Origin: a bacterium
GTDB taxonomy: Bacteria; Omnitrophota; Gorgyraeia; Aquiviventales; Aquiviventaceae
Reading direction: 5' to 3'
Length of the DNA stretch: 64,000 bases
Assembly: GCA_036396895.1 (NCBI GenBank)
Contig: DASWKB010000038.1
Coordinates: 13,145 to 77,144, forward strand
Shown here: positions 26,546-57,788 of the stretch, in pieces
How the letters are laid out: each line of letters begins with the position of its first letter
Numbering within the stretch: position 1 is the stretch's first letter
Program-made: the position numbers and the translations under genes
The notes under the pieces: model-generated
The model's input: the letters and a program-made list of their open reading frames with translations, nothing else
The model's database searches: none
Told to the model about the DNA's origin: nothing

Positions 26546-26558
26546 GCGTGGTCTCCTC

Positions 26559-36398: not shown

Positions 36399-37055
36399 TC
36401 AGGAACGGACGAGCTCGCTGAGGTGCTTGGGATGGACGATCGTGGTCTTGCCGCGGACGGACCGGATCCACCCCTGCTGCTTGAAGCGGCTCAAGGTGCG
36501 GATGGCGGTCTCATGCGTCGTGCCCGCCAGCTCGGCCAGCTCGTGGCGGGTCAGCGGAATCGTCTCGCCGAATTTCTTCTGGAGCGTGAGCAAGACTTGC
36601 GCGATGCGCTTTTCTGCTGGCTCGTAGGCGGTGCAGCTCTTGTGCTCGACCTGGCGCAGGCGATCGCAGAACAGGCACAGCGTCTGGCTGGCGAATTCCC
36701 TGGACTTCGCCATGGCCTGGTGGAACATCTCAAGCGGAACCCGGACGAGCGTGCTGTCCACGGCGGCAATGGCATCGACGGGATAGGCCTTGCGGTCCAG
36801 CGTGGAGAGGCAACAGAAGGTCTCCCCGGGGGTCATGACGCACGTGGTGGATGCCCGGCCGTCGGCGAAGAAATTCATCAGGTGGACGCGTCCGGTACGC
36901 ACGACCCAGACCGCGTCGGCCTGCTCGTTCTGCCGGAAGACCGTTTCGCCCTTGGCGAACCCGCGCTCGCGGCTCACGGACGCGACCTGCTGCAACTCCG
37001 CGGGCGTCAAGCGCTTGAACGGATCCACGTTGGCCAGAAATTGCTGCATCATGCC
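36399..37055 (-). CDS. Crp/Fnr family transcriptional regulator (second paralog)
   Basis: From MMQQFLANVDPFKRLT…; has the HTH TIPLTRHELAELAGTTHETAIRTLS. Overlaps the end of ccsA. Confidence 0.8.
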   Translation of the reverse strand, partial: GMMQQFLANVDPFKRLTPAELQQVASVSRERGFAKGETVFRQNEQADAVWVVRTGRVHLMNFFADGRASTTCVMTPGETFCCLSTLDRKAYPVDAIAAVDSTLVRVPLEMFHQAMAKSREFASQTLCLFCDRLRQVEHKSCTAYEPAEKRIAQVLLTLQKKFGETIPLTRHELAELAGTTHETAIRTLSRFKQQGWIRSVRGKTTIVHPKHLSELVRS

Positions 37056-38773: not shown

Positions 38774-40512
38774 CCCCCTCCCCCCCAGCGCGCCGCCTTC
38801 GCCCGCCGCGCGATGAACATCCACACGACCCCGAGAATCACGATGAGAAATCCGGCGTACACCAGCGGCGTGCCGGGATCGTTCCGCACCGACAGCACCG
38901 TCGTTTCCACTGCGCCCGGGACGAAGCTCGACTGGAACAGGCTGTACCCGCGGTACTTGAGCGGGTTGTTCATGCTGATCTTGCGCATGAGGATAACGCC
39001 CCGCTCCAGGTCGCTCAGGTGGACGTCGCTTTCGAAGCCGGCGGCCATCTGCGTGCCGGGATAATCGATCTTCCTGAAGTCCAGCAGCTTCACGGTGAAC
39101 GGCAGCTCGCGCGTCTGCTGCTCGTAGCTCACCGTCACGGGGTGCCCGTTGAGATCCAGCTCGAGCGCGCCGCCGGATCCGACCCAGCCGTCGGCTTCAG
39201 CGTCGCTCGAGGACAGCGTCACGTGCAGCGCTTCCCCCCTGACCTCGTCGCTGCGGTTCGTCACGCGCTGCTCCAGGACGGCGCGCGGCGCGTACGCCTC
39301 CACGCGGAACACGTACTCGAGCCAAGGGTGCGTATACGTCTCGCCCGGCTCCAGATGCTCGACATGCCGCCGTTCGCCCGCCCGGCCGGTCAGCACCGCG
39401 CCCAGCCGCTCGGCGCCCGGATGCACGTAGAGCGCGATCGCATTCGGCGGCAGCGACGCCGAGAAGGGATGCGTGTAGCTCACCTGGGCCGGAATCTGAT
39501 GCTGCCAGCCGTGCATGGACGCGATGTCCGGATGGAAGGCGAAGAGCAGGTACGGGTCGGTCCCCTCCGGTCCGCTCAGCGTGAAGGCCACCGCGGGATT
39601 GTTCGGAGAGTCCGAGCGGGATTCGGGGCCATCCTCGCCGATCACGAAGTCAGGAAAGTAGTCGCGGAACGTGATCGTGTACGGAGTCCCCTCGACCGGG
39701 ATGGGCGTGTGCATCGTCTCCGGCACAGGAATGTCGCGCGCACCCAGGTCCGGCAGCGCCACGGCCACGACCCCCCGCAGGTGGCGGGTGGCCGGAACCG
39801 GCTCGATGAGGCGCGCGGCGTCGGCCTCCGTTTCCGGCTCGAGGAAGATGACGTGCGCGTCGCCCCAGCCGATCCCGAACCGCTCCGGGTCGCGCGCGAA
39901 GAGCCACAGCGCGTCCTGCTGGAGCCCGTGTTCCACCCTGACCCGCACGGCCGGGTTCGCCTCAGGCCCGCCATCGGTGACCTCGTCCTGCACCACCGCG
40001 TCCGGATAATACCGGTTCACCGTGAGCTCCAGGCGGCGGCCCTCCAGCTCGGCCGAGAACGACGCGTCGGGCTCGTGCACCCAGGCCTGCGTCTCGAAGA
40101 AGGTCGGGAACGCCCGGTGCCCGCCGGGATTCGGCTGATGCAGCACGAGGACCTTGCCCGGAAGCAGCAGCGTCCGGTTGGCCTCCCCTTCGCGGATCAC
40201 GAGCTGGCCCTCGATGCCGAAGCGGCCGCCGATGATGCCGCCGAGGAGAATGCAGATGATCCCGAGGTGCGCCAGGAGGAACGGCACGTGCTTGCGCTTC
40301 CACGGCACGCGACGCAGCGCCGACACCACCAGGTTCACCGCGAGAAATCCGAGGATCCCCTGGAACCACCACGCCTGGTAGATGAAGCGCTGGACGGAGG
40401 CCGTGCCGTAACGCGTCTCATAGATCGTGCCCCACGCCAGCACGATCGCGATCGCGAGGATCAGCGCGACCGCCATCTGGAGTGAGCCCATCCAACGAAG
40501 GAGTCGAGTCAT
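38767..40512 (-). CDS. ccsB: Cytochrome c biogenesis protein CcsB/ResB (System II)
   Basis: 581 aa with N-terminal TM helices and the ResB family N-terminus (…WGTIYETRYGTASVQRFIYQAWWF…). Confidence 0.8.
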   Translation of the reverse strand: MTRLLRWMGSLQMAVALILAIAIVLAWGTIYETRYGTASVQRFIYQAWWFQGILGFLAVNLVVSALRRVPWKRKHVPFLLAHLGIICILLGGIIGGRFGIEGQLVIREGEANRTLLLPGKVLVLHQPNPGGHRAFPTFFETQAWVHEPDASFSAELEGRRLELTVNRYYPDAVVQDEVTDGGPEANPAVRVRVEHGLQQDALWLFARDPERFGIGWGDAHVIFLEPETEADAARLIEPVPATRHLRGVVAVALPDLGARDIPVPETMHTPIPVEGTPYTITFRDYFPDFVIGEDGPESRSDSPNNPAVAFTLSGPEGTDPYLLFAFHPDIASMHGWQHQIPAQVSYTHPFSASLPPNAIALYVHPGAERLGAVLTGRAGERRHVEHLEPGETYTHPWLEYVFRVEAYAPRAVLEQRVTNRSDEVRGEALHVTLSSSDAEADGWVGSGGALELDLNGHPVTVSYEQQTRELPFTVKLLDFRKIDYPGTQMAAGFESDVHLSDLERGVILMRKISMNNPLKYRGYSLFQSSFVPGAVETTVLSVRNDPGTPLVYAGFLIVILGVVWMFIARRAKAARWGGGGA

Positions 40513-44201: not shown

Positions 44202-45485
44202 CACGAGCGCTCCCCCCGCGAGCCGTCCGGGCGGTCCAACTCCCTGATCCGCAGCACGAGGCCGAGGATCAAGAGCCCCAGGATCACGAGCGTCACCCAA
44301 AAGCCCTTGCGGCGGAAGTGGAACTCCTCCACCGCCTGCTCCCCCTGCCCCGCGGCCTCATCCGCATGGGCAAGCCCCTCCTCGACGATGGGGTCCATCT
44401 TGTCCATCGAAAAGGCGTGCACATACGCCCGCGACTGCGTCAGTTTGGCGCCCGCCTCGTGGAGCTCGAATTCCGCGTCCGCCACGTCCATGCCCAGGCC
44501 GTCGGCCTGTTCGATCAGGGCATTCGCGTCCTGCACGCGGGTCTTGAGCCGCTCGATTGCCCCGCGCATCGCTTGGGCGGTGCGGAACCCCGCGGACTCG
44601 GGCTCGTGGCAGCTGACGCAGAGCGCCTCGGGGCCGGTCCCGAGCATCTCGTCCGTCGGCCTGGCGATCAAATGGTTGCCGTGGCACACCTCGCACTCCG
44701 GCAGCCCCAACGCCTCGTGCGCCGCTTTGTGCGGGCTGTTGACGAACAGGTCGCGCGAGAGCGCGTGGCACTGGGCGCACACGTTGCCGACGGCGAGCGT
44801 GCCCGGGCGGGCGGCCTCGTGTGATCCGTGGCAGCTGGCGCAATGGGGCGCCGCGCGGTCGCCCCGGAACAACAGCGCCTGGCCGTGCACGCTCCGCGAA
44901 TATTCCCAGTGCTGATTGACCGGCAGCCCGTGCCGGTCCATGACGGACGCGTCCGCATGGCACGTCGCGCACGTCCCGGGGATGTTGGTCGCATAGACCG
45001 GCGAGGAGGGGTTGCGCGCCTGCAGGATCCCGTGGACGCCGTGACAGCTCGTGCAGACGGGAACGTCGGCGTCGTGCGCGGCGAAGCGTTTGCCGTGCTG
45101 GCTCGTCAGGTACTTCGCGTACTGGTCGGTCGGCAGGTTCGGATTGAACCGCCGCATGTACTCCGGATTCGCGTGGCACCGGGCGCAGAGCGCCGGGATC
45201 TCCTCGCGCCGGATATGCCCGAGGAACCCCCGCGCGGGATCCATGGCCGCCTCCGGATCCATGGAGGCGGGATCTCCCCCGTGGCAGTCGGCGCACGTGA
45301 GCCCGCGCGCGGCATGCACATCGTCGGGAAACAGCGCGGCCGGCCCCCGGGTGCCGCCCTCCATGGCCTGATGGCATTCCACGCACCCGCTGCCCTTGGT
45401 CTGTGCCTGCGCCGCCGGCGCCCATGCCGGGATCGCGAGCGCCGCGACGACGCCGGCTCGCAGCACCACCGCCGAGCGCGTCATG
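44201..45485 (-). CDS. Nonaheme c-type cytochrome with signal peptide and C-terminal TM anchor
   Basis: From MTRSAVVLRAGVVAALAIPAWAPAAQA; 9 CxxCH; C-terminal WVTLVILGLLILGLVL helix. Its ATGA overlap with the cytochrome b stop suggests translational coupling. Confidence 0.75.
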
Positions 45486-46560
45486 GCGCGTGCCCGATCC
45501 AGAGCGCGTAGACCGTCATGCCCACCACGTAGCTCATCCCGACCCACCCCAGCAGCGCCATCAGCCAATGCGCCCGTCCGCGGCGGGCCGGACGGTCCAG
45601 CCACGGCACCAGCACCAGCGCGGCGCCCGCAATCCCGATGCCGCCGATGGCGAGCAGCTCTCCTTCCAAGCCGAAGACATGGCTCGGCACCAGCTTCAAG
45701 GTCTGAAACATCCAGAGGAAGTACCATTCCGGCTCGATGCCGGCCGGCGTCGGCGCGAAGGGATCCGCCTGCTCGCCCAGCGTGGCCGGCAGGTACACCG
45801 CGAGGGCCAGCACCGCCCCGAGCATCACGCACCATGCGACCAGATCCCGGAGCAGGAAGTCCGGCACGAACGGCATGCTGCGCTCGTCCCGCACAGAGAG
45901 CGGCCGGCTCATCCCCTGCATCTGAATCATGGCCAGATGCGCGCCCAGCAGGCCCAGGAGCGCGATCGGCAGGATGGCGATATGCAGCCAATAGAACCGC
46001 CGGATGGTCGCCGCGCCCACTTCCGGACCTCCGCGCAGCATGGTCCCGATGACCGGGCCGATCCCGGGCACGGCCGCGGAGATTTCCGTGCCGACTTTCG
46101 TCGCGAAGTACGCGAGCGTATTCCACGGCAGGAGGTACCCGGTGAATCCGAAGCCCATCAGGAGGAAAAACAGGAGCGCCCCGCTGACCCAGGTCAGTTC
46201 CCGGGGCGGGCGGTACGCCTTCAGGAAAAACGTGCTCGCCAGATGCACGAAGGCGGAGAGGATCGCCACGTTCGCCGCCCAGGCGTGCACCGAGCGCACG
46301 AGCCAGCCGAACTCCACCTTGGTCATGATGAAGCGGACGGACTCGAACGCGTGCTCGGCGGAGGGCTGATAGTACAGCAGCAGCAGGATGCCGCTCAGAA
46401 TCTGGATGACGATCAGGACAAGCGTCATGCCGCCCCAGTAATACCAGATCGTGTGCCGGTGGACGGGCACCGTCTTGTGGGACGCGAACTCGCCGAGGCG
46501 CTGCAGGGGATAGCGGCTGTGGAAGAAGCCGCGCAGCCGCTCAGCCGCGCGCGCGAACAT
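45481..46560 (-). CDS. petB: Cytochrome b (bc1/b6f family, b6 + subunit IV fused length)
   Basis: …WGGMTLVLIVIQILSGILLLLYY…, the heme-ligand His regions (SVHAWAANVAILSAFVHL…) and a PEW-like region (LPW). Confidence 0.85.
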   Translation of the reverse strand: MFARAAERLRGFFHSRYPLQRLGEFASHKTVPVHRHTIWYYWGGMTLVLIVIQILSGILLLLYYQPSAEHAFESVRFIMTKVEFGWLVRSVHAWAANVAILSAFVHLASTFFLKAYRPPRELTWVSGALLFFLLMGFGFTGYLLPWNTLAYFATKVGTEISAAVPGIGPVIGTMLRGGPEVGAATIRRFYWLHIAILPIALLGLLGAHLAMIQMQGMSRPLSVRDERSMPFVPDFLLRDLVAWCVMLGAVLALAVYLPATLGEQADPFAPTPAGIEPEWYFLWMFQTLKLVPSHVFGLEGELLAIGGIGIAGAALVLVPWLDRPARRGRAHWLMALLGWVGMSYVVGMTVYALWIGHAP

Positions 46561-46811
46561 GGAGCCTCACGGGCAAGCCCGTCGCACTTGTCATCCCACG
46601 CTCCGCGTGAGGCGACATCCCGCCCCCGGTCTTGGCCGGAGCAGGCTCGGCGGGATGGAGCCTCACGGGCATGCCGGTTGCCCACATGAACACCGCCCGT
46701 GGGGCGGAATCCCGCGCGAGCCCACGGCCGCTGGCCGTGGTGCGAGTCGCGGGATCACCGGGTCCTTTCGCGCGCGTCATGATCCGCACCGGCAGCGCGC
46801 CCGCGGCTCCG
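46560..46811. repeat. Structured spacer between Rieske and cytochrome b genes, with direct and inverted copies of GGAGCCTCACG and several short stem-loops
   Basis: Two direct repeats of about 26 nt (atggagcctcacgggcaagcc…/atggagcctcacgggcatgcc…), an inverted copy (cgcgtgaggcg), and hairpins cgggcaagcccg and ccacgggc…gcccgtgg. Confidence 0.45.
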
Positions 46812-47294
46812 TCATGAGGATTTCGACACGACAATGTCATCGCCGCGGATGTTGACCTGAAACGCCTCGAGCGGCCGCGGAGGAGGCCCCGAGATCACCT
46901 GGCCGTTCAGGTCGAACTTGCCGTTGTGGCAGGCGCACCAGATGACGCTGGCGTGATCGTCGTACTGCACGGTGCAGTTCAGGTGCGTGCACACGGCGGA
47001 AAACGCCTTCAGGTCTCCGTGCGGCGTATGGACGAGCAGCGCGGGCTGGGACCCGAACCGGAAGATCTTGGCCTGGTTGGCGGCCAGCTCGCCGACTCTC
47101 CCCGCCACCACGTTCGACACCGAAGCTTCCCGGCCCATGGGAGGATAGAGATACCGCACGATCGGGTAGAGAGTCGACCCGATCAGGGCGAGGACGCCGC
47201 CTTTCAGGAGCCCCCCGAGGAACGCGCGCCGGCTGAACCCCCGGCGCGGACACATAATCCCGTTTGACGGTTCCATCTCGTTGCTCCGACGCAC
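46812..47294 (-). CDS. petA: Rieske [2Fe-2S] iron-sulfur protein with twin-arginine signal
   Basis: Tat motif SRRAFLGG; Rieske boxes CTHLNC and CACHNG. Confidence 0.8.
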   Translation of the reverse strand: MRRSNEMEPSNGIMCPRRGFSRRAFLGGLLKGGVLALIGSTLYPIVRYLYPPMGREASVSNVVAGRVGELAANQAKIFRFGSQPALLVHTPHGDLKAFSAVCTHLNCTVQYDDHASVIWCACHNGKFDLNGQVISGPPPRPLEAFQVNIRGDDIVVSKSS

Positions 47295-47394: not shown

Positions 47395-49431
47395 TCAGAA
47401 CTTCTTCGACACCTCCAACCACAATGCGTTCGCCCGGTAGTTGCCCGCCTCCGCCAAAGACTTGGCCAGATAATGATAATATCCGTACTTCGCGCCGAGT
47501 GTCACGTCCTCCTTCGGCGACCAGTTCACGCCGAGCTCCAGGTCGAGCCGCTCGTTGTCGATGCCGTACGGCAGCGCCGTCGGCGACACGTCATTGAAGT
47601 TCTCCGCGTCGGCATAGAGCAGCGAGGACGTCAGCGACACCGCGGACGTCGGCGTGTAATCGACGGTCAAGAGCCAGGTGGTGACATCGCTGCTGAACGC
47701 CGCGATCGGCGGGTTCGGACCGTGGCGGGCCGGCGTGACCACGTCCGCATCTTGCCGGGACACGGACCCCAGCACCAGGAGCCCATTGAGCGGCTGGAGC
47801 GCCACATCGTAGGTATAGATGTGCGACAACGTCTGCGTCTCGACGCTGTTCATGCCCTGCACCGCGGTCGCGTAGTCATCGTCCCGCAGCTGGTAGCGGA
47901 ACGAGGTGCGCAGCCAGCGCCGTGGCTTGAGCGTCACGCGGGTCGTGAACTCATCCGTGGCCTTGTTGGCATAGTCGATGAACGCGGAGCTGAACGACGT
48001 CTCGAATTGGTCGTCGTAGTCATTGTTGCTCCGTTTGTGGCGCACCTGGCTCGTCACGTCCAGGAACCGCCACGGCGAGCTCCGGGCGCCCAGCGTCCAG
48101 CCGCCGCGGCGGACATCGGTCACCGTGTCCCGGTAGAAGGAGTTCGCGCCCGTGATCCCGTCGGATTGATCTTCGCGAAGCCGGATGCGCGCCTGCTCCA
48201 GCTCGAGGTCCGTGTACACCGACGTACGGGGGATTCCGGTGAACTTGAGCGAGACCGCTTCGCCCCAGCGGTGCTCGTTCGAATCGCTGATGTTGTTCTC
48301 GATCCCGTCGATCACGCCGTCGGGCGACGCCCCGGAGGCCGGCGAGCCGTCTTCAGGATATACGGAGACGCTCTCGCGTTTCGCGAGCTCCGCCTTGAGC
48401 CGGGTGGTCAGCGTGAGCGAGTCCGCGACGTCCACCGCCAGGTTGCCGACCCAGGCGTGCGTATCCACATCGCTGTCGGCGCGCGCGTTCCGCTTCTGCT
48501 CCGAGAAGCTGAAGAAATTCGTCGGCACCCCCGCCGCGTTCAATTCATACAGGTCTTCGTATTCGCGGGCCGTCAGGTGCGCGAAGTGATACGCGCTGGC
48601 GAAGAACACCTTTTCTTCCAGGAACGCCCGCTCCGCGCCGAAGAGCGAGGTCAGCACCGCCGCCTCCGGGCGCTGGTCGTGCCGCCGCATCAGCTTGTCG
48701 GCGGCGGTGGCGGTGGTCGAGATGTCCCGCTCGAGCCGCACGGATTCGATGTCGACGAACTCCGCCTCGTGCTTGGTGGTCAGGTTCCACTCCGCCACCT
48801 CGTCGGCGATCTCGAAGCCCACGACGTCGACGATCTCATCCACTTCCTGCCAAGTGGGCGCGATATTCCGGGTCACCGCCTCCTCCGCTTCGCTCCAGGT
48901 GAGGCGGGATTTCGTGCCGTCCTTGTACTCGCGTTCATAGAACAGCTTGATGTCCGGGAAATCCTCGAGCGTGAGGCCCGCCTCCAGCTCGATCTTGCCG
49001 ATGTCCATCTCCAGGCGCTTGTCCGTTTCGCTCCCCGAGAGCGTCGTGAACGGCGGATACACGCCGCCCGTGCCGTCGTAGTATTTCCGGAATTCCTGGA
49101 AATTCAGGTGGACGTACCCGAGGCCGCCCCAGTTGTACTCGAGCGCCGTCCCGAGATCGTTATCGTCGATGATGGCGTGCCCGGTTGCGCGGAATTCGGT
49201 GTCGCCCTCCCCTTCGACCTTGAGGGAGAAATCCTCGATGCCGCCGCCGTAGCCGTCCTTGATCCAGTGGTGCGCCCGGAACTTCTCGTCATCCCCCTGC
49301 ACGTCGATATAGCGCACGGGCAGCACCGTGATCGAGGACTCCATCTCGGCGGCCGCCGCGGTCCGGGCGCTCCCCAGGAGGCCGCCCACGGCCATGACCA
49401 GCGCCCCCACCGCACCGATCGTCGCTCTCAT
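47395..49431 (-). CDS. Outer-membrane beta-barrel protein (large, about 650 aa mature; C-terminal Phe)
   Basis: Signal peptide MRATIGAVGALVMAVGGLLGSARTAAAA, alternating amphipathic beta-strand pattern with aromatic girdle residues throughout, and a terminal …LWLEVSKKF. Confidence 0.55.
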   Translation of the reverse strand: MRATIGAVGALVMAVGGLLGSARTAAAAEMESSITVLPVRYIDVQGDDEKFRAHHWIKDGYGGGIEDFSLKVEGEGDTEFRATGHAIIDDNDLGTALEYNWGGLGYVHLNFQEFRKYYDGTGGVYPPFTTLSGSETDKRLEMDIGKIELEAGLTLEDFPDIKLFYEREYKDGTKSRLTWSEAEEAVTRNIAPTWQEVDEIVDVVGFEIADEVAEWNLTTKHEAEFVDIESVRLERDISTTATAADKLMRRHDQRPEAAVLTSLFGAERAFLEEKVFFASAYHFAHLTAREYEDLYELNAAGVPTNFFSFSEQKRNARADSDVDTHAWVGNLAVDVADSLTLTTRLKAELAKRESVSVYPEDGSPASGASPDGVIDGIENNISDSNEHRWGEAVSLKFTGIPRTSVYTDLELEQARIRLREDQSDGITGANSFYRDTVTDVRRGGWTLGARSSPWRFLDVTSQVRHKRSNNDYDDQFETSFSSAFIDYANKATDEFTTRVTLKPRRWLRTSFRYQLRDDDYATAVQGMNSVETQTLSHIYTYDVALQPLNGLLVLGSVSRQDADVVTPARHGPNPPIAAFSSDVTTWLLTVDYTPTSAVSLTSSLLYADAENFNDVSPTALPYGIDNERLDLELGVNWSPKEDVTLGAKYGYYHYLAKSLAEAGNYRANALWLEVSKKF

Positions 49432-49449
49432 CTCGCCTCCTCCCTCGCC

Positions 49450-50568
49450 TCAATACCGCAGGTGGTCGCTGAAGTTCGACCCGTGGACCGCCGTGTGGCA
49501 GCCCGCGCTGAAACACGTCCCTTCCGGTAGGCGACCCGCATGGCCCGAATTCCCGATGCTCGGGAAGTTGACCTGGGTGTGGCAGCGCAGGCACAGGTTC
49601 GCGTCCCGCGCGACCAGCATCTTGTCGTTGATCGAACCGTGAACCTGGTGGCACTCGGTGCATCCCTCGCGCAGCGCTTCGTGCTCGAACACGAACGGCC
49701 CTCGCTGCTCCTTGTGGCACTTGAAGCACGCCTCGTTCGTGCCGTGGAGGCTCGTCGCCGACCAGGGGCGGACGTCCGTCGCGTGCGCGTCATGGCAGTC
49801 CGCGCAGCTCATCTTGCCTTCCAGCACCGGGTGGTGGTGCGTCATCCGGAACTGCATCTTCTTGTCCGTGTGGCAGGCGAAGCACGCGTTGGGGTCCTTG
49901 CGGGGGTTGATCATTCCGCCGACGCCGCGGCCTCCGCCGGCGTCCACATGGAGGCTGCCCGGCCCATGACAAGTCTCGCATCCTTGCGCCTTGAGGCCCT
50001 CCACCTCGCCCGGAATGGCAATGCGCGCGTGCGAAGAGTGCTTGAACTCCTTGGCCTCCTTGGCGTGGCACATGGCGCAGGTCTCCGTGCCGACGTATTC
50101 CGCCTTGGGCGCCTCCTCCGCTCCGTCCTCCGCCTGCTCATCGGCCCATGCCGCCGGCATCGCCAGGGAGGCCAGATACCGGTTGACCGACCGCGGTGGC
50201 AGCGAAGATTGCGGGCTGCCGGGCAGGGAGGCGGGGTCGGACGGGTTTGTGCCGGCGTTCAGCTCCTCGCCGTTCGTCGCGCCGTCTTCGTCGGCGTCCT
50301 GATCCTCGACGGCGCGGTAGTCCTCGATCGTGAGGGCCAGGGCGTTCCCGGCCCCCTTGAGCGCCTCGAGCGCCTTGCCGTAGGCGTTCAGGTCGCCTTT
50401 CTTCCCGACCGCGCTCTCATGGCAAGCCTTGCACGTCACGGCCTTCGTGTCCGGATAGGCGGCCTTAAAACTCTTCACGTTCTGGATCGTCGCCCAAGCC
50501 GAAGGCGCCATGACGAGCCACGCCAACAAGCCTCCCACTATGCCCAGCATGCCCCGCATGTCCCGCAT
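49450..50568 (-). CDS. Multiheme c-type cytochrome (8 CxxCH + 1 CX4CH) with an N-terminal monoheme/DxDxDG Ca-binding-like domain
   Basis: Signal peptide; CKACH, then DQDADEDGATNGEE, then CAMCH, CETCH, CFACH, CADCH, CFKCH, CTECH, CLRCH, and CFSAGCH near the C-terminus. Confidence 0.7.
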   Translation of the reverse strand: MRDMRGMLGIVGGLLAWLVMAPSAWATIQNVKSFKAAYPDTKAVTCKACHESAVGKKGDLNAYGKALEALKGAGNALALTIEDYRAVEDQDADEDGATNGEELNAGTNPSDPASLPGSPQSSLPPRSVNRYLASLAMPAAWADEQAEDGAEEAPKAEYVGTETCAMCHAKEAKEFKHSSHARIAIPGEVEGLKAQGCETCHGPGSLHVDAGGGRGVGGMINPRKDPNACFACHTDKKMQFRMTHHHPVLEGKMSCADCHDAHATDVRPWSATSLHGTNEACFKCHKEQRGPFVFEHEALREGCTECHQVHGSINDKMLVARDANLCLRCHTQVNFPSIGNSGHAGRLPEGTCFSAGCHTAVHGSNFSDHLRY

Positions 50569-50618
50569 TGCTCCCCCCTCAGGCTGCATCCGCGCACCAC
50601 ACTCGGCCGTTCCTGAGC

Positions 50619-50996
50619 TTATGATGACGGCGAACCCTCCGGAGCCGACGCGGGATCGGACGGATCCGTCCCCGCCTCGAGCTCCTCGCCGTTGGTCGCG
50701 CCGTCTTCGTCAGCGTCCTGGTCCTCGACGGCGCGGTAGTCCTCGACCGTCAGGGTCAGGGCGTTCCCGGCGCCCTTGAGCGCCTCGAGCGCCTTGCCGT
50801 AGGCGTTCAGGTTTCCCTTCTTGCCGATCGCGGCCTCATGGCAGACCTTGCACGTCACGACCTTCGTGCCCGGATAGGCGTCCTTAAAACTCTTGACGTT
50901 CTGGATCGTCGCCCGGGCCGAGGGCGCCATGACGAGCGCCGCCGCGATGACGCCGAGCCCGATTACGAGACCGTGACCGATTCGCATGGCTGGTTC
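50619..50996 (-). CDS. Small secreted monoheme cytochrome c with a DxDxDG motif; tandem paralog of the N-terminal domain of the downstream multiheme cytochrome
   Basis: MRIGHGLVIGLGVIAAALVMAPSARA signal, CKVCHE, DQDADEDGATNGEE. DNA about 90% identical to 50224-50520. Confidence 0.6.
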   Translation of the reverse strand, partial: EPAMRIGHGLVIGLGVIAAALVMAPSARATIQNVKSFKDAYPGTKVVTCKVCHEAAIGKKGNLNAYGKALEALKGAGNALTLTVEDYRAVEDQDADEDGATNGEELEAGTDPSDPASAPEGSPSS

Positions 50997-52087
50997 TCCT
51001 GCGCGTCCGTCCGCCACCACCGCAGAAAATGCTCGGTCTGCCGCGACAGCATGGCGCGGCACGATGCCACGGCCCGGCGGCGGCTCGCCAGTGTCGTGTC
51101 CACGGCCGTTTGCAGATCGTCGATGTTGTAGAGCGTGACGCCCGGCATGCGGCCGACCGCCGGATCCACGTTCCTCGGCACCGAGAGATCGACGATGACG
51201 AGCGGGCGGGATCCTCGGACGGCCTGCGCCGATTCGATATCGCCGGGATCGATCACGTAGTGCGGCGCCTGCGTGCAGACGATCGCGACATCGATGTGCG
51301 CGAGATGCCGCTGGGCCTGCTCCCATGAGAGCCAACCGCCGGAGCACAACGAGGCCAGTTCCCTGGCTTTGGCCTGGGTTCGGTTGACGACCCAGACCTG
51401 GCCGATGCCCGCGGCGGTGAGATGGCGCACCGTCGTTTCCGCGGCCTTGCCCGCGCCCCACAACAGCGCATGCGCCTCGCCGAGACGCTCGCCGAAGAGC
51501 CGGCGGAGGAGCCCCGCCACCACGGACCCGATCGACCCCGGACCGCCGTTCACGGCCGTGCGCGTGCGGATCAGCTTGGCGGCATGGAGGGCCTTTTGGA
51601 AGAGCCGGTTCAGGAGCATGCCGGTGGCACCGGCGTCCTGCGCGGTGAGGTAGGCCTGCTTGACCTGCGCGGCGATCTCGGACTCGCCCAGCACCATGGA
51701 GTCCAACCCTGAGGCCACCTGGAACAGGTGGGACACGGCGTCGTGGTTCGCGCGCCGGACCAGCGCCGCCTCGAGCCGGGCCGGTTCCGCTCCGGCCCGG
51801 GCCGCGAACATCTCGCACGCCGCGCGGGCGGCCGCATCGGGATCAGTCCCTGCCAGATAGCATTCGACGCGGTTGCACGTCGAGAGCACCACGGCCTCGT
51901 CGATGGCCGCCGATGCGCACAGCGCGCGGAGCGCATCGGGCAGCTCGCGGGGGTGGAAGGCCAGCCGGTCGCGCAGATCGAGCCCCGTGCCGCGGTAGTG
52001 CACCCCCACCACCGCGAGCGCCCGCGCCCGCGCCGAGGAGGAAGGCGCCGCGCCAGCAATGGGCTGGATGTGGTCTGTCTGCGCAGT
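50963..52087 (-). CDS. hemA: Glutamyl-tRNA reductase
   Basis: …VLSTCNRVECY…, a C-terminal NAD-binding and dimerization region, about 375 aa from MTAQTDHIQP. Confidence 0.85.
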   Translation of the reverse strand, partial: TAQTDHIQPIAGAAPSSSARARALAVVGVHYRGTGLDLRDRLAFHPRELPDALRALCASAAIDEAVVLSTCNRVECYLAGTDPDAAARAACEMFAARAGAEPARLEAALVRRANHDAVSHLFQVASGLDSMVLGESEIAAQVKQAYLTAQDAGATGMLLNRLFQKALHAAKLIRTRTAVNGGPGSIGSVVAGLLRRLFGERLGEAHALLWGAGKAAETTVRHLTAAGIGQVWVVNRTQAKARELASLCSGGWLSWEQAQRHLAHIDVAIVCTQAPHYVIDPGDIESAQAVRGSRPLVIVDLSVPRNVDPAVGRMPGVTLYNIDDLQTAVDTTLASRRRAVASCRAMLSRQTEHFLRWWRTDAQENQPCESVTVS

Positions 52088-52207
52088 CATGGACGGATTG
52101 GGAGAATTATAGTCCCGCCTCTCGGCCGGCGCTAGGATGGAATTGTGCTCGAAGGGCATGCCTGATCTATCCAGATACGTCGAGTATTCGAAGACAGGAC
52201 ATCCGTC

Positions 52208-52567
52208 TCAGTTCCGCTCCGTCAGGCACGGGAACCCGGCGCTCCGGCCCCCGTGCCGGGCGCAGCAGGGAAACGTCCCGGTCAGCCGGTACCGGACGCA
52301 TTGCCCTTCCCTGATGGCCTCGACCAGCCCCGCCGCGCGCAAGATCGCCAGATGGTGCGACACGCGCGCGGGTCTCACGCGCAGGCGCCTCGCCAGCTCG
52401 CCCACATGCTCGCTGCGCGACAGCAGGGCGCGCACGAGCCCAAACCGGATCGGATCTCCCATCGCCTGGAACAGGATCACGCACGCCTCCGGCGTCCGGG
52501 GAGCCTGGGCCTGCCAGCCGCTGCCGTTGTTGACGGCCGATTCAACTTCGCGTCGGGATCGCCTCAT
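52208..52567 (-). CDS. ArsR/SmtB family transcriptional regulator
   Basis: …LFQAMGDPIRFGLVRALLSRSEHVGELARRLRVRPARVSHHLAILRAAGLV… (winged HTH). Confidence 0.7.
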   Translation of the reverse strand: MRRSRREVESAVNNGSGWQAQAPRTPEACVILFQAMGDPIRFGLVRALLSRSEHVGELARRLRVRPARVSHHLAILRAAGLVEAIREGQCVRYRLTGTFPCCARHGGRSAGFPCLTERN

Positions 52568-53162
52568 TCAGCGCATCCAGCAGCTGGTCGATCCGCATGC
52601 CATAGCACCACGCGACCTCCTCGAGCGTCGCGCTGCCGTGCCAGCGCCGATTGACCCGCAGCGCATCGACCACCGCGGCGAGCTCCGGAAACCGGCGCAG
52701 CGTCGCGTTCAGCGTGGCGTCCTTCGTGATGGGCCACACGGCCGCCGCCCCCGCGGGCGGCAGCTGCTCCAACAGCGGGAACAGCAGATCGTGCTCCCGT
52801 TGGGTGTGAACCCGGTAGAGCGCGAGGAAATGCTCCGCGAACGTCGTGAACGACTCCTGGCCCGGCATGACGCCGCCTCTGGCCAGCGCCTTCAGGACCG
52901 TCAGCGATTCCAGCAGATCCCGGTGCTCCGCCAGCAGCACTTCGATCAGCGCGGGATCCGCCTGGCCCGAGGCCCGAAACGGCACGTAGAACTGCCGCTC
53001 TTCCTGCGCGATATGCTCGGTGAGCCTGACCGCGCAGGCGTCGAGAAACGGGAGCAGATCTTCCGGCGGCACCCGCATATGCGATGTCACCCACAGATCG
53101 AGATGGGCCAGCGTCGCGTCAAGCAACTCATGGTCGTCATGCAGCCATGCGAGCCGATTCAT
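52542..53162 (-). CDS. Hemerythrin HHE domain + C-terminal DUF1858 protein (second paralog)
   Basis: HDDHELL, TEHIAQEE and EHRDLLE motifs, plus C-terminal …LRRFPELAAVVDALRVNRRWHGSATLEEVAWCYGM…. Confidence 0.6.
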   Translation of the reverse strand: MNRLAWLHDDHELLDATLAHLDLWVTSHMRVPPEDLLPFLDACAVRLTEHIAQEERQFYVPFRASGQADPALIEVLLAEHRDLLESLTVLKALARGGVMPGQESFTTFAEHFLALYRVHTQREHDLLFPLLEQLPPAGAAAVWPITKDATLNATLRRFPELAAVVDALRVNRRWHGSATLEEVAWCYGMRIDQLLDALNEAIPTRS

Positions 53163-53283
53163 GCTCCGGAGCTCGTCCAGGACGGTGCCCGGCTTGTCGT
53201 GTTGTGTCGAACGCTCGAACGGGCTCCCGGCTCTACGGTAGCGGGAATCCCGGATGGCCTTCTATGACGTGACGCATGTTCGT

Positions 53284-54519
53284 TCAACATCGCTCCAGCC
53301 GCACCGTTGCCTCCGCGTGCGCGGACTCGAACGCCCCGGCATCGGGGGCCCGGAGCAATCGCGGAAGCGCGAACCACAGCCAAGCCAGCGCGCCCAGCAG
53401 CCAGGCGCCTGCCGCCGTGCCCAGCGCATGGAAATAGCCGGCGGGCACGAGATCCGCGCACAGCCGCGCGATCAGCGCCGCGCCCAGCGCGACCCCGAGC
53501 AGGCGAATGATCCACAGCGGGTTGCGAAGGCGCAACCCTTCCCCGCTGTGGCTCATCACCACCATCGTGGCGACCGCAAACGCCATCAGGCTGAACCCGC
53601 CCAAAAACACCACGTGCAGCATCGCAACCCGGTACGCCGGCTGCCACGCCGCCGCCCACAAGCCTCCCATGATGGCCCACAGCGACACCCACACCAGCCG
53701 CGCATAGCCCTCGGGAACCGCCGGAGGCCTCCAGCACTGCGTGGTCCAGGCCAGCTCCGCCGTGACCACCGCCGCCCGCAGCGCATAGGCCGGACGGATC
53801 ATGCCTGCGCCTTCCAGCACGCCGCTCGCCGCCAGCGACGCGCCGGCGGCCGCGTGCGCGGCCATCCGCACGCCGGGCCGGGTCCACCATCGGGGATCAC
53901 CCGGATCGACGCGGACCGGCAGCCCGCCCCGTCCGAGCAGCCTGGGCGCCATGAAGCCGGCGACGCCGACGACGATGGACAGCAGGAATCCCTGCTGAGC
54001 CAGCACGCGCCCCGTGCCGCTCACCCACACCGGGGCGCCCCCCAGCTCCCGGGCCATCATCATCCCGGCTCCCGCGATGCCCAACAGCAGGCCGATCGGG
54101 ATCCAAACGAACTCCGCCGGCGCATCGCCGCCGCGCCGCGCCGCCACCCGGCGCGCGGCGAACGCGCCCAACTGAACGAGCAGCGCGATGAAACACGCCA
54201 GCGACGCGGCCCACCAGCCGAATGACAGGCACAGCACGTATCCCGCCAGCGCCGCCAGGGCGCCCGCCAATTCCGCGGTGGAGGCGGGCGGCGTTGACGA
54301 GAACCGCGGAAGCGCGGTCATGAGGAAGCCGGCGATGAAGCCGTACATGTAGCCGCCGACTTGAAGGAACGCGTGAAAGGAACCGGATGAGGCCTCGGTC
54401 CATCGGGCCGCGTACGCGAGCCAGTGGCCGACGCCGAGGCAGCCCAGCAGCGTGCCGATGGGAAACAGGACCCGAAAGGGCTCCCGCTTCGCCTGGGTCC
54501 AGGTGATCATCCCGCGCAC
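53284..54519 (-). CDS. NnrS-like polytopic membrane protein (heme-copper membrane protein family linked to NO response)
   Basis: 411 aa, about 12 TM helices with multiple His in the helices. Family assignment from overall architecture only. Confidence 0.45.
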   Translation of the reverse strand: MRGMITWTQAKREPFRVLFPIGTLLGCLGVGHWLAYAARWTEASSGSFHAFLQVGGYMYGFIAGFLMTALPRFSSTPPASTAELAGALAALAGYVLCLSFGWWAASLACFIALLVQLGAFAARRVAARRGGDAPAEFVWIPIGLLLGIAGAGMMMARELGGAPVWVSGTGRVLAQQGFLLSIVVGVAGFMAPRLLGRGGLPVRVDPGDPRWWTRPGVRMAAHAAAGASLAASGVLEGAGMIRPAYALRAAVVTAELAWTTQCWRPPAVPEGYARLVWVSLWAIMGGLWAAAWQPAYRVAMLHVVFLGGFSLMAFAVATMVVMSHSGEGLRLRNPLWIIRLLGVALGAALIARLCADLVPAGYFHALGTAAGAWLLGALAWLWFALPRLLRAPDAGAFESAHAEATVRLERC

Positions 54520-55655
54520 GAGGCCGGCTGTCCGGCCTGGACGCGCGGCACATAGGCGCAGCCCGGCTCTTCCGCGAGATAATCGCCGGTCGTCGCGTAG
54601 GCGCGCGCGCGGGAGCCGCCGCAGGCGTCCCGGTACTCGCAGATCCCGCAGCGGCCGCCCAGGCGGTCGGGATCGCGAAGCGCCCGGAACACCGGCGAGT
54701 CGCGGTACACGTCCGCCAGCCGGTGGCGGCGCACGTTGCCGGCCGCCAGCGGCAGAAACCCGCTCGGATAGATCTCCCCGTGGTACGAGATGAACAGGTG
54801 GCCTTTGCCCGCGTTGATCGGCTGCGGGGCCTGGCCGATCGTCCCCATCGGCCCGATCGCGCGCCGCAGCGCCTCAGGCAACGCCGCATCCGAGGCCGAG
54901 GGACGCCGGGCGGCCGCCGGCTCGCGCTGCATGACGTAACGGCGGAAGTGGGGGGCTTCGGTGATCTTGACGATGAACGGCGCGCGGCGTGTCAGCGCGT
55001 AGAGCTTCGCGAAGACCCGTTCGAATTCCTCGGGCGCGAGCCCCTCCACCTGGTTGCCCCGGCCCACCGGCACGAGGAAGAACACCTCCCAGAATACGAT
55101 CCCGAGGCGCTCGATCAGCTCGATCATCGCGTCGGCGTCCTCGAGGTTGCGCCGGCTGAAGACGGTGTTGATCTGGACGGCGAGCTTGGCCTCGTGCGCC
55201 CACTGCACGGCGTCCATGGTCTTGCGGAACGCGCCCGGCACGCCCCGGAACGCGTCGTGCGCGCCGGGGGTGCTCGCATCCAGGCTCAGCGCCATCTGAT
55301 CGAGCCCCGTGTCCTTCAGCGACGCGACGACGGACCGGGTCAGCTTCGCGGTCGCGGCCGGAATCGTGCCGACGCGCCGTCCGCGCGCTTTGGCGCGCCG
55401 GATCAGCTCGAAGAGATCGGGCCGCTTGAGCGGATCGCCGCCGCTGAGGACCAGGATCGGGGTGCCGAGGGCCGCGATCTCATCGATCAGCGCCAGCCCC
55501 TCTTCGGGCGTCAGCTCTCCGGGCAGCGGGTTCGGCTGGGCGGCGGCGCGGCAGTGCGCGCAGGCGAGGTCGCAGGCTTGCGTGGTTTCCCAAATGACGA
55601 TGAAGGGCGTCCGGGCGAGGTCGAGCGCGCGCGCGTGGGCGTGGGGCGGCGTGGT
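54507..55655 (-). CDS. Radical SAM / SPASM-domain enzyme (NirJ/AhbD/MftC-like subfamily)
   Basis: IWETTQACDLACAHC (CX3CX2C) and a C-terminal auxiliary-cluster Cys region CGICEYRDACGG. The start is probably the Met of MTTPPHAHARA…. Confidence 0.7.
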   Translation of the reverse strand, partial: TTPPHAHARALDLARTPFIVIWETTQACDLACAHCRAAAQPNPLPGELTPEEGLALIDEIAALGTPILVLSGGDPLKRPDLFELIRRAKARGRRVGTIPAATAKLTRSVVASLKDTGLDQMALSLDASTPGAHDAFRGVPGAFRKTMDAVQWAHEAKLAVQINTVFSRRNLEDADAMIELIERLGIVFWEVFFLVPVGRGNQVEGLAPEEFERVFAKLYALTRRAPFIVKITEAPHFRRYVMQREPAAARRPSASDAALPEALRRAIGPMGTIGQAPQPINAGKGHLFISYHGEIYPSGFLPLAAGNVRRHRLADVYRDSPVFRALRDPDRLGGRCGICEYRDACGGSRARAYATTGDYLAEEPGCAYVPRVQAGQPASCAG

Positions 55656-55903
55656 CATGCGCCTGGCGTCCCGGGCGGCGCGGGAACCACGCCGGAGACC
55701 GGCAGCGCGTCGAACGGCCACGCCCCGCCGTCGGTCGTGAAGACGCAGTCCACGCGGAAGCAGGCGGGATCCTTATCGAGGCAGTTGACCACTCTCCACT
55801 TCCCTGGCGCGTGCTGCAGCAGGATCGCCCAGACGCTGCGCTGCGTCAGCGCGCACGTGCACGGCAGGTATTTCACCTCGCCCCGGTCCGCCTCACTCAT
55901 CAC
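55655..55903 (-). CDS. Small Cys-containing hypothetical protein (82 aa) translationally coupled to the radical SAM/SPASM gene
   Basis: VKYLPCTCALTQRSVWAILLQHAPGKWRVVNCLDKDPACFRVDCVF; its stop overlaps the rSAM start; lies immediately downstream of GGAATKC element copy 3. Confidence 0.35.
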   Translation of the reverse strand: MMSEADRGEVKYLPCTCALTQRSVWAILLQHAPGKWRVVNCLDKDPACFRVDCVFTTDGGAWPFDALPVSGVVPAPPGTPGA

Positions 55904-55913
55904 TGTGCCTCCC

Positions 55914-55996
55914 GTGCCAAATGTGGAATTCGGAATTGGGAATTCGGAATGTGCTCCCGGTTTTCAATTCCGCATTCCGCATTCCGCATTTGGCAC
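55914..55996. repeat. Heptamer-array hairpin element, GGAATKC family, copy 3
   Basis: gtgccaaatgtggaattcggaattgggaattcggaatg tgctcccggtttt caattccgcattccgcattccgcatttggcac. Confidence 0.7.
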
Positions 55997-56045
55997 ACCG
56001 CATGCCCATGCACCTTGAATCTTCCTTGACGTGAGCCTGATGCAG

Positions 56046-57788
56046 TTAGCCGGCGCACTCGCCCTTCCCCATCCCTCCCAAGGAGAAGTCCTCCGTGTGC
56101 CCCCAGTCGCGGAACGCCTCAGGGTCTTCCGGGTTGGGTTCGAACACGGCGAACGGGGCCAGCGCGCGCTCGATCGGCGCCGTGCCGGCGCGTTCCACGC
56201 AGGCCCGGAACGATTCCCCGTCGGTCCGCTCGCGCCGGTACCAGGCCAGCAGCGCCTCGACGGCCTGCGGGACCCGCCGCGCCGGCAGCCGCGCCACCGT
56301 CTGCCCGAATGACGCTTCGCCGTCCCCGCATCCGCCGCCGACCAGCACCTGATAGAACGGCACCGGGCGGCCCGCCACGTTCCGGCTCGACCCGAACATG
56401 CCGATGTCGGCGATATGATGCTGGCCGCAGGAATTCGGGCAGCCGGAGAGCTTGATCCGGAGCGCTTGGAGGTCGTCGGTCTTGTACTCCGGAGCGTCGA
56501 GCGTGTCCGCCAGCGCCGTCGCCAGGCCGCGCGAGGCGGTAATGCCGATCTGGCAGGTGTCCGCGCCCGGGCAGGACGTGATGTCCTGAATCCGCTCCGC
56601 GTCGGCGCGCCCGAGCCCGAGCGGGACGAGCACCGCGTACAGCGACGGCAGATCCTCTTCCCTAACCCAGGGCAGGCACACGTCCTGCCACGGCGTCGTG
56701 ACGACCCGCCCGCCGGAGAACCGGCGCGCCGCGTCCGCGAGACCCCGCAGCTGGGGCACCGACAGATCACCCAGGAGCAGCCGCACGGTGACCATCGCGA
56801 CGCCCGGCTGGCGCTGGGGCTGCGCGTTCGTCTTGACCCACCGGACATACCCCGCGGCGCCCTCCGCCCGGATGGCGCGGCCGCCGCCGCGCCCGTTCGT
56901 TGGGATCGCCGGCTCCGGCAGCAACGGGAACCGCTCCGGGCGCGCGTGCAGCTCGTCGCGCCGAGCGAACACGCGGCGGCGGAACTCCTCGATGCCGATC
57001 GAGCTCAGCAGGAACTTCATCCTGGCGCGCTGGCGGTTCTTTCGCTCACCGTCGCGGTTGAACACCGCAAGGACGGCCTCCATCGTCGGCAGGAGCTCCG
57101 CCAGCGGCGTCCACGGCTCCAGGAGATCCGCCGGGCGCGGGAGCGCCCCGAGCCCCCCGCCGACGTACAGCCGGAATCCGGGCCGGCCCTGATCCAGCGC
57201 CGCGATCACCCCGATGTCATGGATCGCCGCCATCGCCCGGTCGTGCCGGCAGCCGGAGAAGCTCATCTTGAACTTGCGGGGAAGCTCCTGCGTGTCCGGG
57301 TGCCTGAGGAAATACGTGGTCGCGGCCAGCACGTACGGCGCCACGTCGAAGACCTCATCGGGGCAGAGCCCGGTGAACGGGCACGCGGTGATGTTCCTGA
57401 CGCTGTTGCCGCACGCCTCCCGCGTGGTGAGGCCGACATCCGCCAGCTCCGCCAGCAGGTCCGGCACCCGCGGCAGGGGCACCTCGTAGAGCTGGAAGTC
57501 CTGCCGGGTCGTCACGTGCGCCCTGCCGGTCGCGTAGGCCTCCGCGAGCGCCGCGACCCGCTCGCACTGCCCGGCGTTGAGCCAGCCGCCTGGCACTTTG
57601 ATGCGGACCATCTGGCGGTCGCGCAGCGCGCGGATGCCGTAGATCCCGAGCTGCAGCCGGCACTTCTTGAAGTCATCCGCGGAGAGCGACCCGTCGAGGT
57701 ACTGGCGGATGCGGCCCCGGAACTCGTCCAGTTCCGCCGGGTTCCCCGGCAGCGTCACGATGGGTGTCGTCGGCTGTGTCTGCTGCAT
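56046..57788 (-). CDS. Ferredoxin-dependent sulfite/nitrite reductase (siroheme + 4Fe-4S; NirA/Sir family)
   Basis: Two NiR/SiR repeats and the cluster motif SGCPNSCGQHH…; 580 aa. Confidence 0.85.
   Translation of the reverse strand: MQQTQPTTPIVTLPGNPAELDEFRGRIRQYLDGSLSADDFKKCRLQLGIYGIRALRDRQMVRIKVPGGWLNAGQCERVAALAEAYATGRAHVTTRQDFQLYEVPLPRVPDLLAELADVGLTTREACGNSVRNITACPFTGLCPDEVFDVAPYVLAATTYFLRHPDTQELPRKFKMSFSGCRHDRAMAAIHDIGVIAALDQGRPGFRLYVGGGLGALPRPADLLEPWTPLAELLPTMEAVLAVFNRDGERKNRQRARMKFLLSSIGIEEFRRRVFARRDELHARPERFPLLPEPAIPTNGRGGGRAIRAEGAAGYVRWVKTNAQPQRQPGVAMVTVRLLLGDLSVPQLRGLADAARRFSGGRVVTTPWQDVCLPWVREEDLPSLYAVLVPLGLGRADAERIQDITSCPGADTCQIGITASRGLATALADTLDAPEYKTDDLQALRIKLSGCPNSCGQHHIADIGMFGSSRNVAGRPVPFYQVLVGGGCGDGEASFGQTVARLPARRVPQAVEALLAWYRRERTDGESFRACVERAGTAPIERALAPFAVFEPNPEDPEAFRDWGHTEDFSLGGMGKGECAG

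Follow-up and report, generated by a model that had tools for sequence, protein, structure and literature searches.

A 64 000-nucleotide stretch of DNA, positions 13,145 to 77,144 of contig DASWKB010000038.1 in the Omnitrophota assembly GCA_036396895.1 (the whole stretch is hereafter the window), was analysed with a focus on the gene for a 678-amino-acid (aa) outer-membrane beta-barrel and the adjacent gene for a 379-aa multiheme cytochrome. The two products probably constitute a two-component electron conduit across the outer membrane, of the type represented by MtrAB, PioAB and MtoAB. An earlier sequence-only reading of this DNA had proposed that the barrel serves as a dedicated sheath for a cytochrome wire, and this proposal is supported by a predicted barrel of 26 strands that has no plug and MtrB as its best fold match, by the homology of its partner to MtrA and by the invariance of the pair. 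Porin-cytochrome conduits are well known and this is not a new kind of system. What is new is an octaheme MtrA relative whose last heme site is CX4CH, a barrel family unrecognized by sequence models, the addition of modular monoheme domains, and the operon linkage of the pair to a Rieske/cytochrome b complex and an ImcH-like gene.

The barrel protein has a Sec-type signal peptide ending AAA/AE and, like most members of its family, a C-terminal phenylalanine (...LWLEVSKKF); the ribosome-binding site of its gene is strong (GGGAGGAGG). An alignment of 42 full-length homologues was used as input to AlphaFold2 and gave a model with a mean predicted local distance difference test (pLDDT) score of 87.6 and a predicted template modelling (pTM) score of 0.78. 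The model contains 26 strands over residues 29–677, beginning right after the signal peptide, with turns of 2–6 residues on the periplasmic side and alternate, extracellular, loops of up to 23 residues. These turn lengths conform to the normal pattern of an outer-membrane protein. The sequence-only reading would have been refuted by a strand number and plug typical of TonB-dependent or general porins, and this was not the case: the model shows 26 strands without a plug domain, and neither Plug nor a TonB receptor was matched in Pfam at E ≤ 0.01.

When the model was compared with the PDB using Foldseek, the top match was MtrB (6r2q_B; E 4.2e-11, template modelling (TM) score 0.64/0.67), and all the others among the top 50 matches were 22-strand TonB-dependent transporters with TM scores of 0.27–0.48. 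In MtrB, too, a barrel of 26 strands surrounds MtrA (PMC12133095, citing the 6R2Q structure). For an interstrand spacing of 4.4 Å and a tilt near 40 degrees, standard barrel geometry gives 26 strands a computed C-alpha diameter near 47 Å, wide enough for a heme-wire protein. Two other identities were considered and ruled out: a TonB-dependent transporter, by the 26 strands, the absent plug and the low TM scores, and an LptD-type 26-strand barrel, by the lack of an N-terminal jellyroll domain and of any LptD among the top 50 fold matches. The absence of an N-terminal CXXC motif, stated in the sequence-only reading, was confirmed: the barrel has no cysteine at all and no heme motif, and CXXC is absent from all 42 members of the family. 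An N-terminal CXXC characterizes the Shewanella type of MtrB and is not known from PioB or MtoB. Elsewhere in the window a 220-aa DUF2490 protein is encoded at 31395–32057 (minus strand), and three members of the large-barrel family gave weak DUF2490 matches, which are probably generic beta-barrel similarity.

The partner gene ends 18 nucleotides (nt) before the barrel start and encodes a cytochrome with a signal peptide, eight CXXCH motifs and one CFSAGCH motif (CX4CH), giving nine heme sites. The NCBI annotation has it as a 366-aa 'cytochrome c3 family protein' with its start at 50550. Eight of the nine sites fall within a C-terminal core that matched MtrA of the solved MtrCAB structure (6r2q_A) at E 1.4e-31, the HMMER alignment running in two stretches over MtrA residues 62–169 and 177–325. 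The eight core sites align to MtrA hemes 1, 2 and 5–10, and thus the core corresponds to MtrA without two central hemes (3–4). The cytochrome also matched the GSU2203 family (1.4e-46), and its core is homologous to MtrA.

The arrangement of seven CXXCH motifs and a terminal C-x4-CH, followed by ...TA(V/P)HGSN..., was present in 24 of the 25 octaheme partner open reading frames (ORFs) counted in related loci; two further ORF extractions held only an N-terminal fragment. The consensus of the last site, located in the window within 49450–49530, is C(F/W)(S/T)xxCH. The relative L018 has CXXCH at this position, which is a reversion. Over 34 aligned relatives the octaheme core is 62–74% identical and is far more conserved than the barrel.

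Homologues of the barrel comprised 59 close ones (close identity 44–52%), and a profile search of 1.84 billion proteins gave at least 856 representative clusters, defined at 50% identity, at E ≤ 1e-3 and 349 at E ≤ 1e-30. The close homologues and those from a scan of species-representative genomes came mostly from metagenome-assembled genomes (MAGs) of Candidatus Omnitrophota, many of them from groundwater; a few barrel-carrying bins were labelled Planctomycetes-like and one Syntrophales. The window and the Omnitrophota loci were 45–75% identical with shared synteny. In every locus with upstream DNA (∼25 distinct loci) an MtrA-like octaheme gene was found immediately upstream of the barrel and in the same orientation. 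The comparison of synteny across relatives, suggested as a check by the sequence-only reading, thus found the cytochrome-barrel pair to be invariant, and it is the only invariant part of the cluster, over barrels that have diverged to 28–52% identity. The downstream blocks common to relatives were Rieske, cytochrome b, 9-heme cytochrome, ImcH-like, CbcL-like and ResB/CcsA genes. Within the fetched flanks, 13 loci contain the Rieske/cytochrome b genes and 13 contain the ImcH-like gene, and L038 has a 14th Cytochrom_NNT (ImcH-like) gene of 498 aa. The cluster in L038, an Omnitrophica contig of 1.59 Mb, was the smallest, consisting of ResB/CcsA, the octaheme, the barrel, an 85-aa gene and the ImcH-like gene.

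Distant members of the barrel family, 780–915 aa in length, have one or two PSCyt1 monoheme domains fused N-terminal to a complete barrel. All three of these relatives that were examined are directly preceded by a gene for a 224–277-aa multiheme cytochrome, and in both of the two with DNA this gene encodes an octaheme of seven CXXCH motifs and a C-x4-CH. The window cytochrome has a monoheme domain of its own, with no detectable sequence relationship to PSCyt1, and therefore two different monoheme domains have been attached independently: PSCyt1 at the periplasmic N-terminus of the barrel, and the other at the N-terminus of the cytochrome, which is the periplasmic end in MtrA. The two independent fusions are independent evidence that the barrel and the octaheme act together, and suggest an advantage in having a monoheme entry point at the periplasmic mouth. 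Genes neighbouring one of the fused members, P0197, belong to the N_methyl and SBP_bac_10 families; its source is suggested to be a member of the Planctomycetota.

The monoheme domain of the window cytochrome lies in an N-terminal add-on that is joined to the octaheme core by a proline- and serine-rich linker. The add-on matched TSP3_bac in Pfam, together with a weak match to Temptin_C, and the monoheme domain was the confident part of the AlphaFold2 model of the cytochrome (pLDDT 72–93). Only the window's close relatives have this add-on. In the long cytochromes the linker ends in a conserved '...P.AWA(E/D)'. In the alignment this motif coincides with the position at which the signal peptide of the short octahemes is cleaved, which suggests an ancestral gene fusion that may have swallowed a signal peptide. 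The first gene of the operon encodes a free 122-aa protein that shares 78% identity with the first 128 aa of the cytochrome (BLASTP 1e-63); it is a tandem partial duplicate and a candidate for a soluble periplasmic shuttle. A separate monoheme copy was also present in L001, L025 and L011.

The ten genes of the operon, and the other features discussed here, are listed in Table 1. The spacing between genes 1 to 10 is, in order, 29, 18, 100, 251, −4, −1, 83, 174 and −58 nt, and a promoter and terminator scan, otherwise uninformative, gave no terminator-like sites within the operon. The GC content of the window is ∼69% and nearly all the real genes are on the minus strand. Third-position GC was 0.87–0.89 against the 69% GC background, which together with the number of barrel homologues indicates that these are real genes and not chance ORFs. 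The sequence-only reading had described a barrel followed by multiheme cytochromes; these neighbours are present, but along the coding strand the cytochrome gene comes first, then the barrel, Rieske and cytochrome b genes, and after these the further cytochromes. It had also placed a secreted 9-heme cytochrome directly upstream of the barrel on the same strand, and Rieske, cytochrome b and more cytochrome genes downstream, and these were all found on the minus strand, the upstream cytochrome with the eight CXXCH motifs, single CX4CH motif and signal peptide described above. The gap between the Rieske and cytochrome b genes is 251 nt in the window and ∼4–20 nt in relatives. Within it, at 46559–46681, there are two 27-nt direct-repeat copies that are 89% identical and lie 96 nt from each other, one of them touching the cytochrome b start codon, and also a 19-nt inverted repeat; the region may represent a duplicated site of translation initiation or a hairpin with a regulatory role.

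Table 1. Features of the predicted conduit operon and of fused relatives (window coordinates unless a locus is named)
Feature	Position	Strand	Details
Free monoheme + TSP3 protein, 122 aa	50619-50987	minus	Gene 1 on coding strand
Multiheme cytochrome, 379 aa	49450-50589	minus	Gene 2
Cytochrome N-terminal add-on, ~aa 1-128	50206-50589	minus	Signal peptide, helical monoheme domain (CKACH), TSP3 calcium-binding repeat
Octaheme MtrA-like core, ~aa 160-379	49450-50112	minus	7 CXXCH + terminal CX4CH
Outer-membrane beta-barrel, 678 aa	47395-49431	minus	Gene 3
Rieske [2Fe-2S] protein	46812-47294	minus	Gene 4
Cytochrome b	45481-46560	minus	Gene 5
9-heme cytochrome with C-terminal membrane anchor, 427 aa	44201-45484	minus	Gene 6
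7-heme NapC/NrfH-like (ImcH-like) cytochrome, 504 aa	42687-44201	minus	Gene 7
11-heme cytochrome fused to cytochrome b561 domain, 638 aa	40687-42603	minus	Gene 8
ResB	38767-40512	minus	Gene 9
CcsA	37049-38824	minus	Gene 10; start uncertain
PSCyt1-barrel locus	L037:4863-7991		
PSCyt1-barrel locus	L039:1024-4613		
PSCyt1-fused barrel members			P0151, P0154, P0163, P0168, P0175, P0184, P0197, P0200, P0207

The genes downstream of the pair encode inner-membrane components. The Rieske protein matched PF00355 (2.8e-14) and has a twin-arginine signal (SRRAFL), with a match to the b6f-type Rieske subfamily below the cut-off. The cytochrome b matched PF00033 (7.8e-48), NF002990 (5e-68) and, below the cut-off, cytb_ExtP (1.3e-61); it is of the fused b6 and subunit IV type with a PEWY motif and resembles Geobacter ExtP. 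The start of the 427-aa 9-heme cytochrome gene overlaps the cytochrome b stop by 4 nt, and this protein, which has a signal peptide and a C-terminal anchor, is likely to be the c-type subunit of the Rieske/cytochrome b complex.

The start of the next gene overlaps the preceding stop by 1 nt, and its 504-aa product has three N-terminal hydrophobic helices followed by CGLVCH (CX3CH) and six CXXCH motifs, a Cytochrom_NNT match and a match to NrfH at 2.7e-13 that is below the cut-off. ImcH has been defined by three transmembrane segments, one CX3CH and 5–9 CXXCH motifs (PMC6295460), and the 504-aa protein has this architecture, so may be termed ImcH-like on that ground. The 638-aa protein combines an 11-heme periplasmic domain with a cytochrome b561/FdnI-like membrane domain (PF01292, 1.4e-14), which is a CbcL/MtoC/MtrH-like architecture by the criteria of PMC6295460. 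Three homologues each of ImcH and CbcL have been counted in Candidatus Omnitrophica, and no mtrAB or mtoAB genes were adjacent to any imcH (PMC6295460). In contrast, the ImcH-like gene adjoins the pair or lies within ∼0.5 kb of it in the window and in L006, L019, L020, L027 and L038. ResB and CcsA represent system II cytochrome c maturation, and their homologues in related loci carry PF05140 and PF01578.

Elsewhere in the window, the minus-strand region 11619–31161 encodes a VIT1 iron transporter, acetyl-CoA synthetase, HypD/HypF, the large and small subunits of a [NiFe]-hydrogenase, accompanied by FNR-like and 4Fe-4S subunits, and a pyruvate:ferredoxin oxidoreductase paired with a DHODH-like protein. 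These last two genes also adjoin the conduit genes in L038. The only oxidase-type Pfam match in the window was a weak one to Cyt_bd_oxida_I, and no cytochrome c oxidase was found in the 64 kb. Judged by its gene content, the context of the window is anaerobic and either fermentative or hydrogen-linked.

Several observations weigh against placing the pair with MtrAB. The barrel family profile gave no match to any PDB chain, MtrB included, at E ≤ 1 or E ≤ 10. The window barrel matched PF11854 (MtrB_PioB) with 30.3 bits against a gathering score of 23, but the match was out of register, residues 550–652 aligning to positions 249–360 of the 635-position profile, and only one of the 42 family members matched at E ≤ 0.01; for these reasons the barrel is not assigned to PF11854. 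On the side of the cytochrome, the match to TIGR03508 (DmsE/MtrA family; E 1.2e-47) shows clear homology, but its score of 162.5 bits falls short of the curated 192.2, and the core has eight hemes compared with 10 in MtrA. The AlphaFold2 model of the cytochrome alone, made from a 35-sequence alignment without hemes, had pLDDT mostly <50 in the core, so that the length of the core is inferred rather than measured; a Foldseek search with this model gave no match, and the poorly modelled heme core was not used. The barrel is, on the predicted structure, MtrB-like by fold and context and not by detectable sequence similarity.

In the mechanism that we propose, the octaheme core would be threaded through the lumen of the barrel. 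By analogy with MtrA, the N-terminus of the core would be at the periplasmic mouth and the terminal CX4CH heme, as the counterpart of MtrA heme 10, at the outer mouth, forming an insulated chain of hemes of ∼60 Å across the outer membrane. The tethered monoheme domain and the free 122-aa paralogue may ferry electrons between the conduit and three predicted quinol:cytochrome c modules of the inner membrane: the Rieske/cytochrome b complex with its 9-heme subunit, the ImcH-like protein and the CbcL-like protein. No gene for an MtrC-type surface cytochrome was found in the operon or in the related loci examined, nor any in the operon for an outer-membrane or lipoprotein cytochrome, so that direct electron exchange with the outside would fall to the terminal heme. 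It may contact soluble or colloidal extracellular redox species, as has been proposed for PioAB and MtoAB.

Of the two directions of electron flow, the outward one, from quinol to an extracellular acceptor such as Fe(III), Mn(IV) or humics, appears somewhat more likely. This leaning is based on three lines of evidence. Quinol oxidation is the natural role of each of the three inner-membrane modules. The ImcH-like gene remains beside the pair in loci without Rieske/cytochrome b, and ImcH is tied to Fe(III) reducers, the family having been implicated so far only in quinol oxidation in such organisms (PMC6295460). The window also encodes pyruvate:ferredoxin oxidoreductase and [NiFe]-hydrogenase, and has the weak cytochrome bd match and no cytochrome c oxidase. 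Outward flow is opposed by the fact that the best-known examples of two-component conduits lacking MtrC come from Fe(II) oxidizers, and by the finding that MtoAB and PioAB do not form function-specific clades (PMC8805035).

The same heme wire could be used inward. The electron donor would then be a mineral, a cathode, a partner cell or Fe(II) outside the cell, and from the periplasmic cytochromes the electrons would either reach a terminal reductase or be driven uphill into the quinone pool by way of the Rieske/cytochrome b complex, as has been proposed for PioAB and MtoAB. Like those systems, the operon and related loci lack a surface cytochrome of the MtrC/OmcA type (PMC8805035), and the barrel is without the N-terminal CXXC of Shewanella MtrB. 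About half of the loci have a Rieske/cytochrome b complex linked directly to the pair, the position of the small monoheme protein is analogous to that of a periplasmic shuttle, genes for a VIT1 iron transporter and hemerythrin are nearby, and FeGenie-based work has indicated that Omnitrophica MAGs potentially both oxidize and reduce iron (PMC8478452). These features are countered by the retention of the ImcH-like partner, known only for quinol oxidation (PMC6295460), where Rieske/cytochrome b is absent, by the absence of a cytochrome c oxidase or cytochrome c-dependent reductase from the 64-kb window, in which the weak cytochrome bd match represents a quinol oxidase family, and by the anaerobic context, either fermentative or hydrogen-linked. 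Inward use is considered less likely than outward flow.

A conduit of the DmsEF type, delivering electrons to an extracellular or outer-membrane terminal reductase for a soluble substrate, for example a molybdoenzyme, with no mineral contact, is improbable. The best NCBIfam match of the cytochrome is indeed the DmsE family, and in one Omnitrophota relative (L001/L025) the barrel gene is separated from the Rieske gene by genes for a molybdopterin oxidoreductase, a 4Fe-4S protein and an NrfD-like protein, but no such reductase gene is present in the window operon or in most related loci, and the NrfD membrane subunit in the L001 set points to an inner-membrane complex rather than an extracellular one. 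The full insertion, at 12331–18758 of L001/L025, also includes Band_7 and small cytochrome c3-like genes, and is an alternative-complex-III or Psr-like module.

It is likewise improbable that the barrel works on its own, as a channel for solute, iron or heme that happens to lie in a cytochrome-rich operon, while the cytochrome is a soluble carrier that stays outside it in the periplasm. Although the barrel has no convincing sequence similarity to MtrB, and large barrels share a generic fold for which TonB-dependent transporters also gave significant Foldseek matches, the barrel has 26 strands with neither plug nor TonB box, its TM score to MtrB is clearly apart from those of all transporters, the octaheme is strictly adjacent to barrels of 28–52% identity and in the far PSCyt1-fused branch, and in distant members a cytochrome domain is fused directly to the barrel.

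As a predicted conduit, the pair may be compared with the characterized systems. With MtrAB of MtrCAB (Shewanella baltica, 6R2Q) it shares an MtrA-homologous core, a predicted barrel of 26 strands that lacks a plug and has MtrB as its best fold match, and the gene order of cytochrome then barrel. It differs in having eight core hemes rather than 10, with no equivalents of MtrA hemes 3–4 and with CX4CH as the last site, in the extra N-terminal monoheme and TSP3 domain of its cytochrome, in the absence of MtrC from the window, and in a barrel without CXXC or detectable sequence similarity to MtrB. Its predicted partners are the Rieske/cytochrome b complex, the ImcH-like protein and the CbcL-like protein, whereas the Shewanella partner is CymA.

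PioAB of Rhodopseudomonas palustris TIE-1 and MtoAB of Sideroxydans and Gallionella are likewise two-component systems with no surface cytochrome, and have in common with the window system a conceptual link to bc-type complexes. The mto clusters carry mtoC of the CbcL family and the small monoheme gene mtoD (PMC6295460), and in these two respects resemble the window. PioAB and MtoAB fall within the MtrA and MtrB sequence clades (PMC8805035), whereas the window barrel, unlike PioB and MtoB, is outside the MtrB clade. They are decaheme, proteobacterial and function in Fe(II) oxidation; the window cytochrome has an octaheme core and an electron flow that is only somewhat more likely to be outward than inward.

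Pcc porins are smaller than the window barrel, with ∼20 strands, and appear to be unrelated to its family. Pcc clusters normally include an outer-membrane lipoprotein cytochrome, whereas none was found in the window operon, in which the other cytochromes are anchored in the inner membrane; two-gene versions without an outer cytochrome are present in Anaeromyxobacter and Kuenenia. The Geobacter Pcc (OmaB/OmbB/OmcB) has a periplasmic 8-heme cytochrome beside a porin-like protein (PMC4245776), and the window is similar in having an octaheme gene beside a barrel gene. The window octaheme is, unlike the Pcc cytochrome, a relative of the MtrA/DmsE family by sequence. The extHIJKLMNOPQS cluster includes ExtP, going by gene name, and the window cytochrome b matches the NCBIfam model for ExtP.

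Cyc2 is an Fe(II) oxidase in which a monoheme cytochrome is fused to a porin (PMC8478452), and the PSCyt1-fused distant members are formally alike, although much larger. The window barrel itself has no cytochrome domain, has 26 strands compared with the small porin of Cyc2, and would still need its separate octaheme; in the fused members the PSCyt1 domain on the periplasmic N-terminus would add to the wire and not replace it. The 504-aa protein has the same signature as ImcH of Geobacter sulfurreducens, the likeness being one of architecture, and its gene shares an operon with an mtrAB-like pair, unlike the imcH loci surveyed previously (PMC6295460). The 638-aa protein, like CbcL of G. sulfurreducens, joins a multiheme domain to a membrane domain of the dihaem-b type, with 11 hemes compared with nine.

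Omnitrophota are often regarded as ultra-small and host-dependent. It is conceivable, though doubtful, that the pair belongs to a distinct and widespread class of conduit, apart from Mtr and Pcc, with an octaheme CX4CH wire, a 26-strand barrel family that is not detectably similar to MtrB in sequence, a modular monoheme entry domain attached to either the wire or the barrel and, in the window lineage, a hard-wired connection to an energy-conserving Rieske/cytochrome b complex. If this is true, the Omnitrophota would gain a respiratory link to the outside, which could serve minerals or the exchange of electrons with, or their theft from, partner or host cells. The text of a dedicated survey of MtrCAB, with hits in only three phyla, mentions neither Omnitrophota nor Planctomycetes (PMC8805035). 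A general remark based on FeGenie is that Omnitrophica MAGs may cycle iron (PMC8478452), and in the searchable literature we found general statements only and no earlier description of the conduit module in Omnitrophota.

Surveys of extracellular electron transfer use sequence models of MtrA/MtrB, Pcc and Cyc2, and the Pfam MtrB_PioB model does not reliably detect this barrel family of at least 856 clusters. If the pairs are functional, the capacity for electron exchange of Planctomycetota-like bacteria, and of Omnitrophota from groundwater and the subsurface, would be undercounted. The system raises the questions of whether an octaheme is able to span a 26-strand sheath, what role the conserved terminal CX4CH heme has at the cell surface, whether tethered monoheme domains bridge the periplasm, and whether energy can be conserved by a Rieske/cytochrome b complex during extracellular respiration.

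Upstream of the conduit genes, the minus-strand region 50963–57788 encodes the glutamyl-tRNA reductase HemA, an NnrS-like membrane protein, a radical-SAM protein and a protein resembling sulfite/nitrite reductases (NIR_SIR), a conserved block that is common to L001, L025 and L026 and may supply heme or sirohaem for a cytochrome-rich lifestyle. A fused HemD/HemE gene was located at 1376–3322 of the window.

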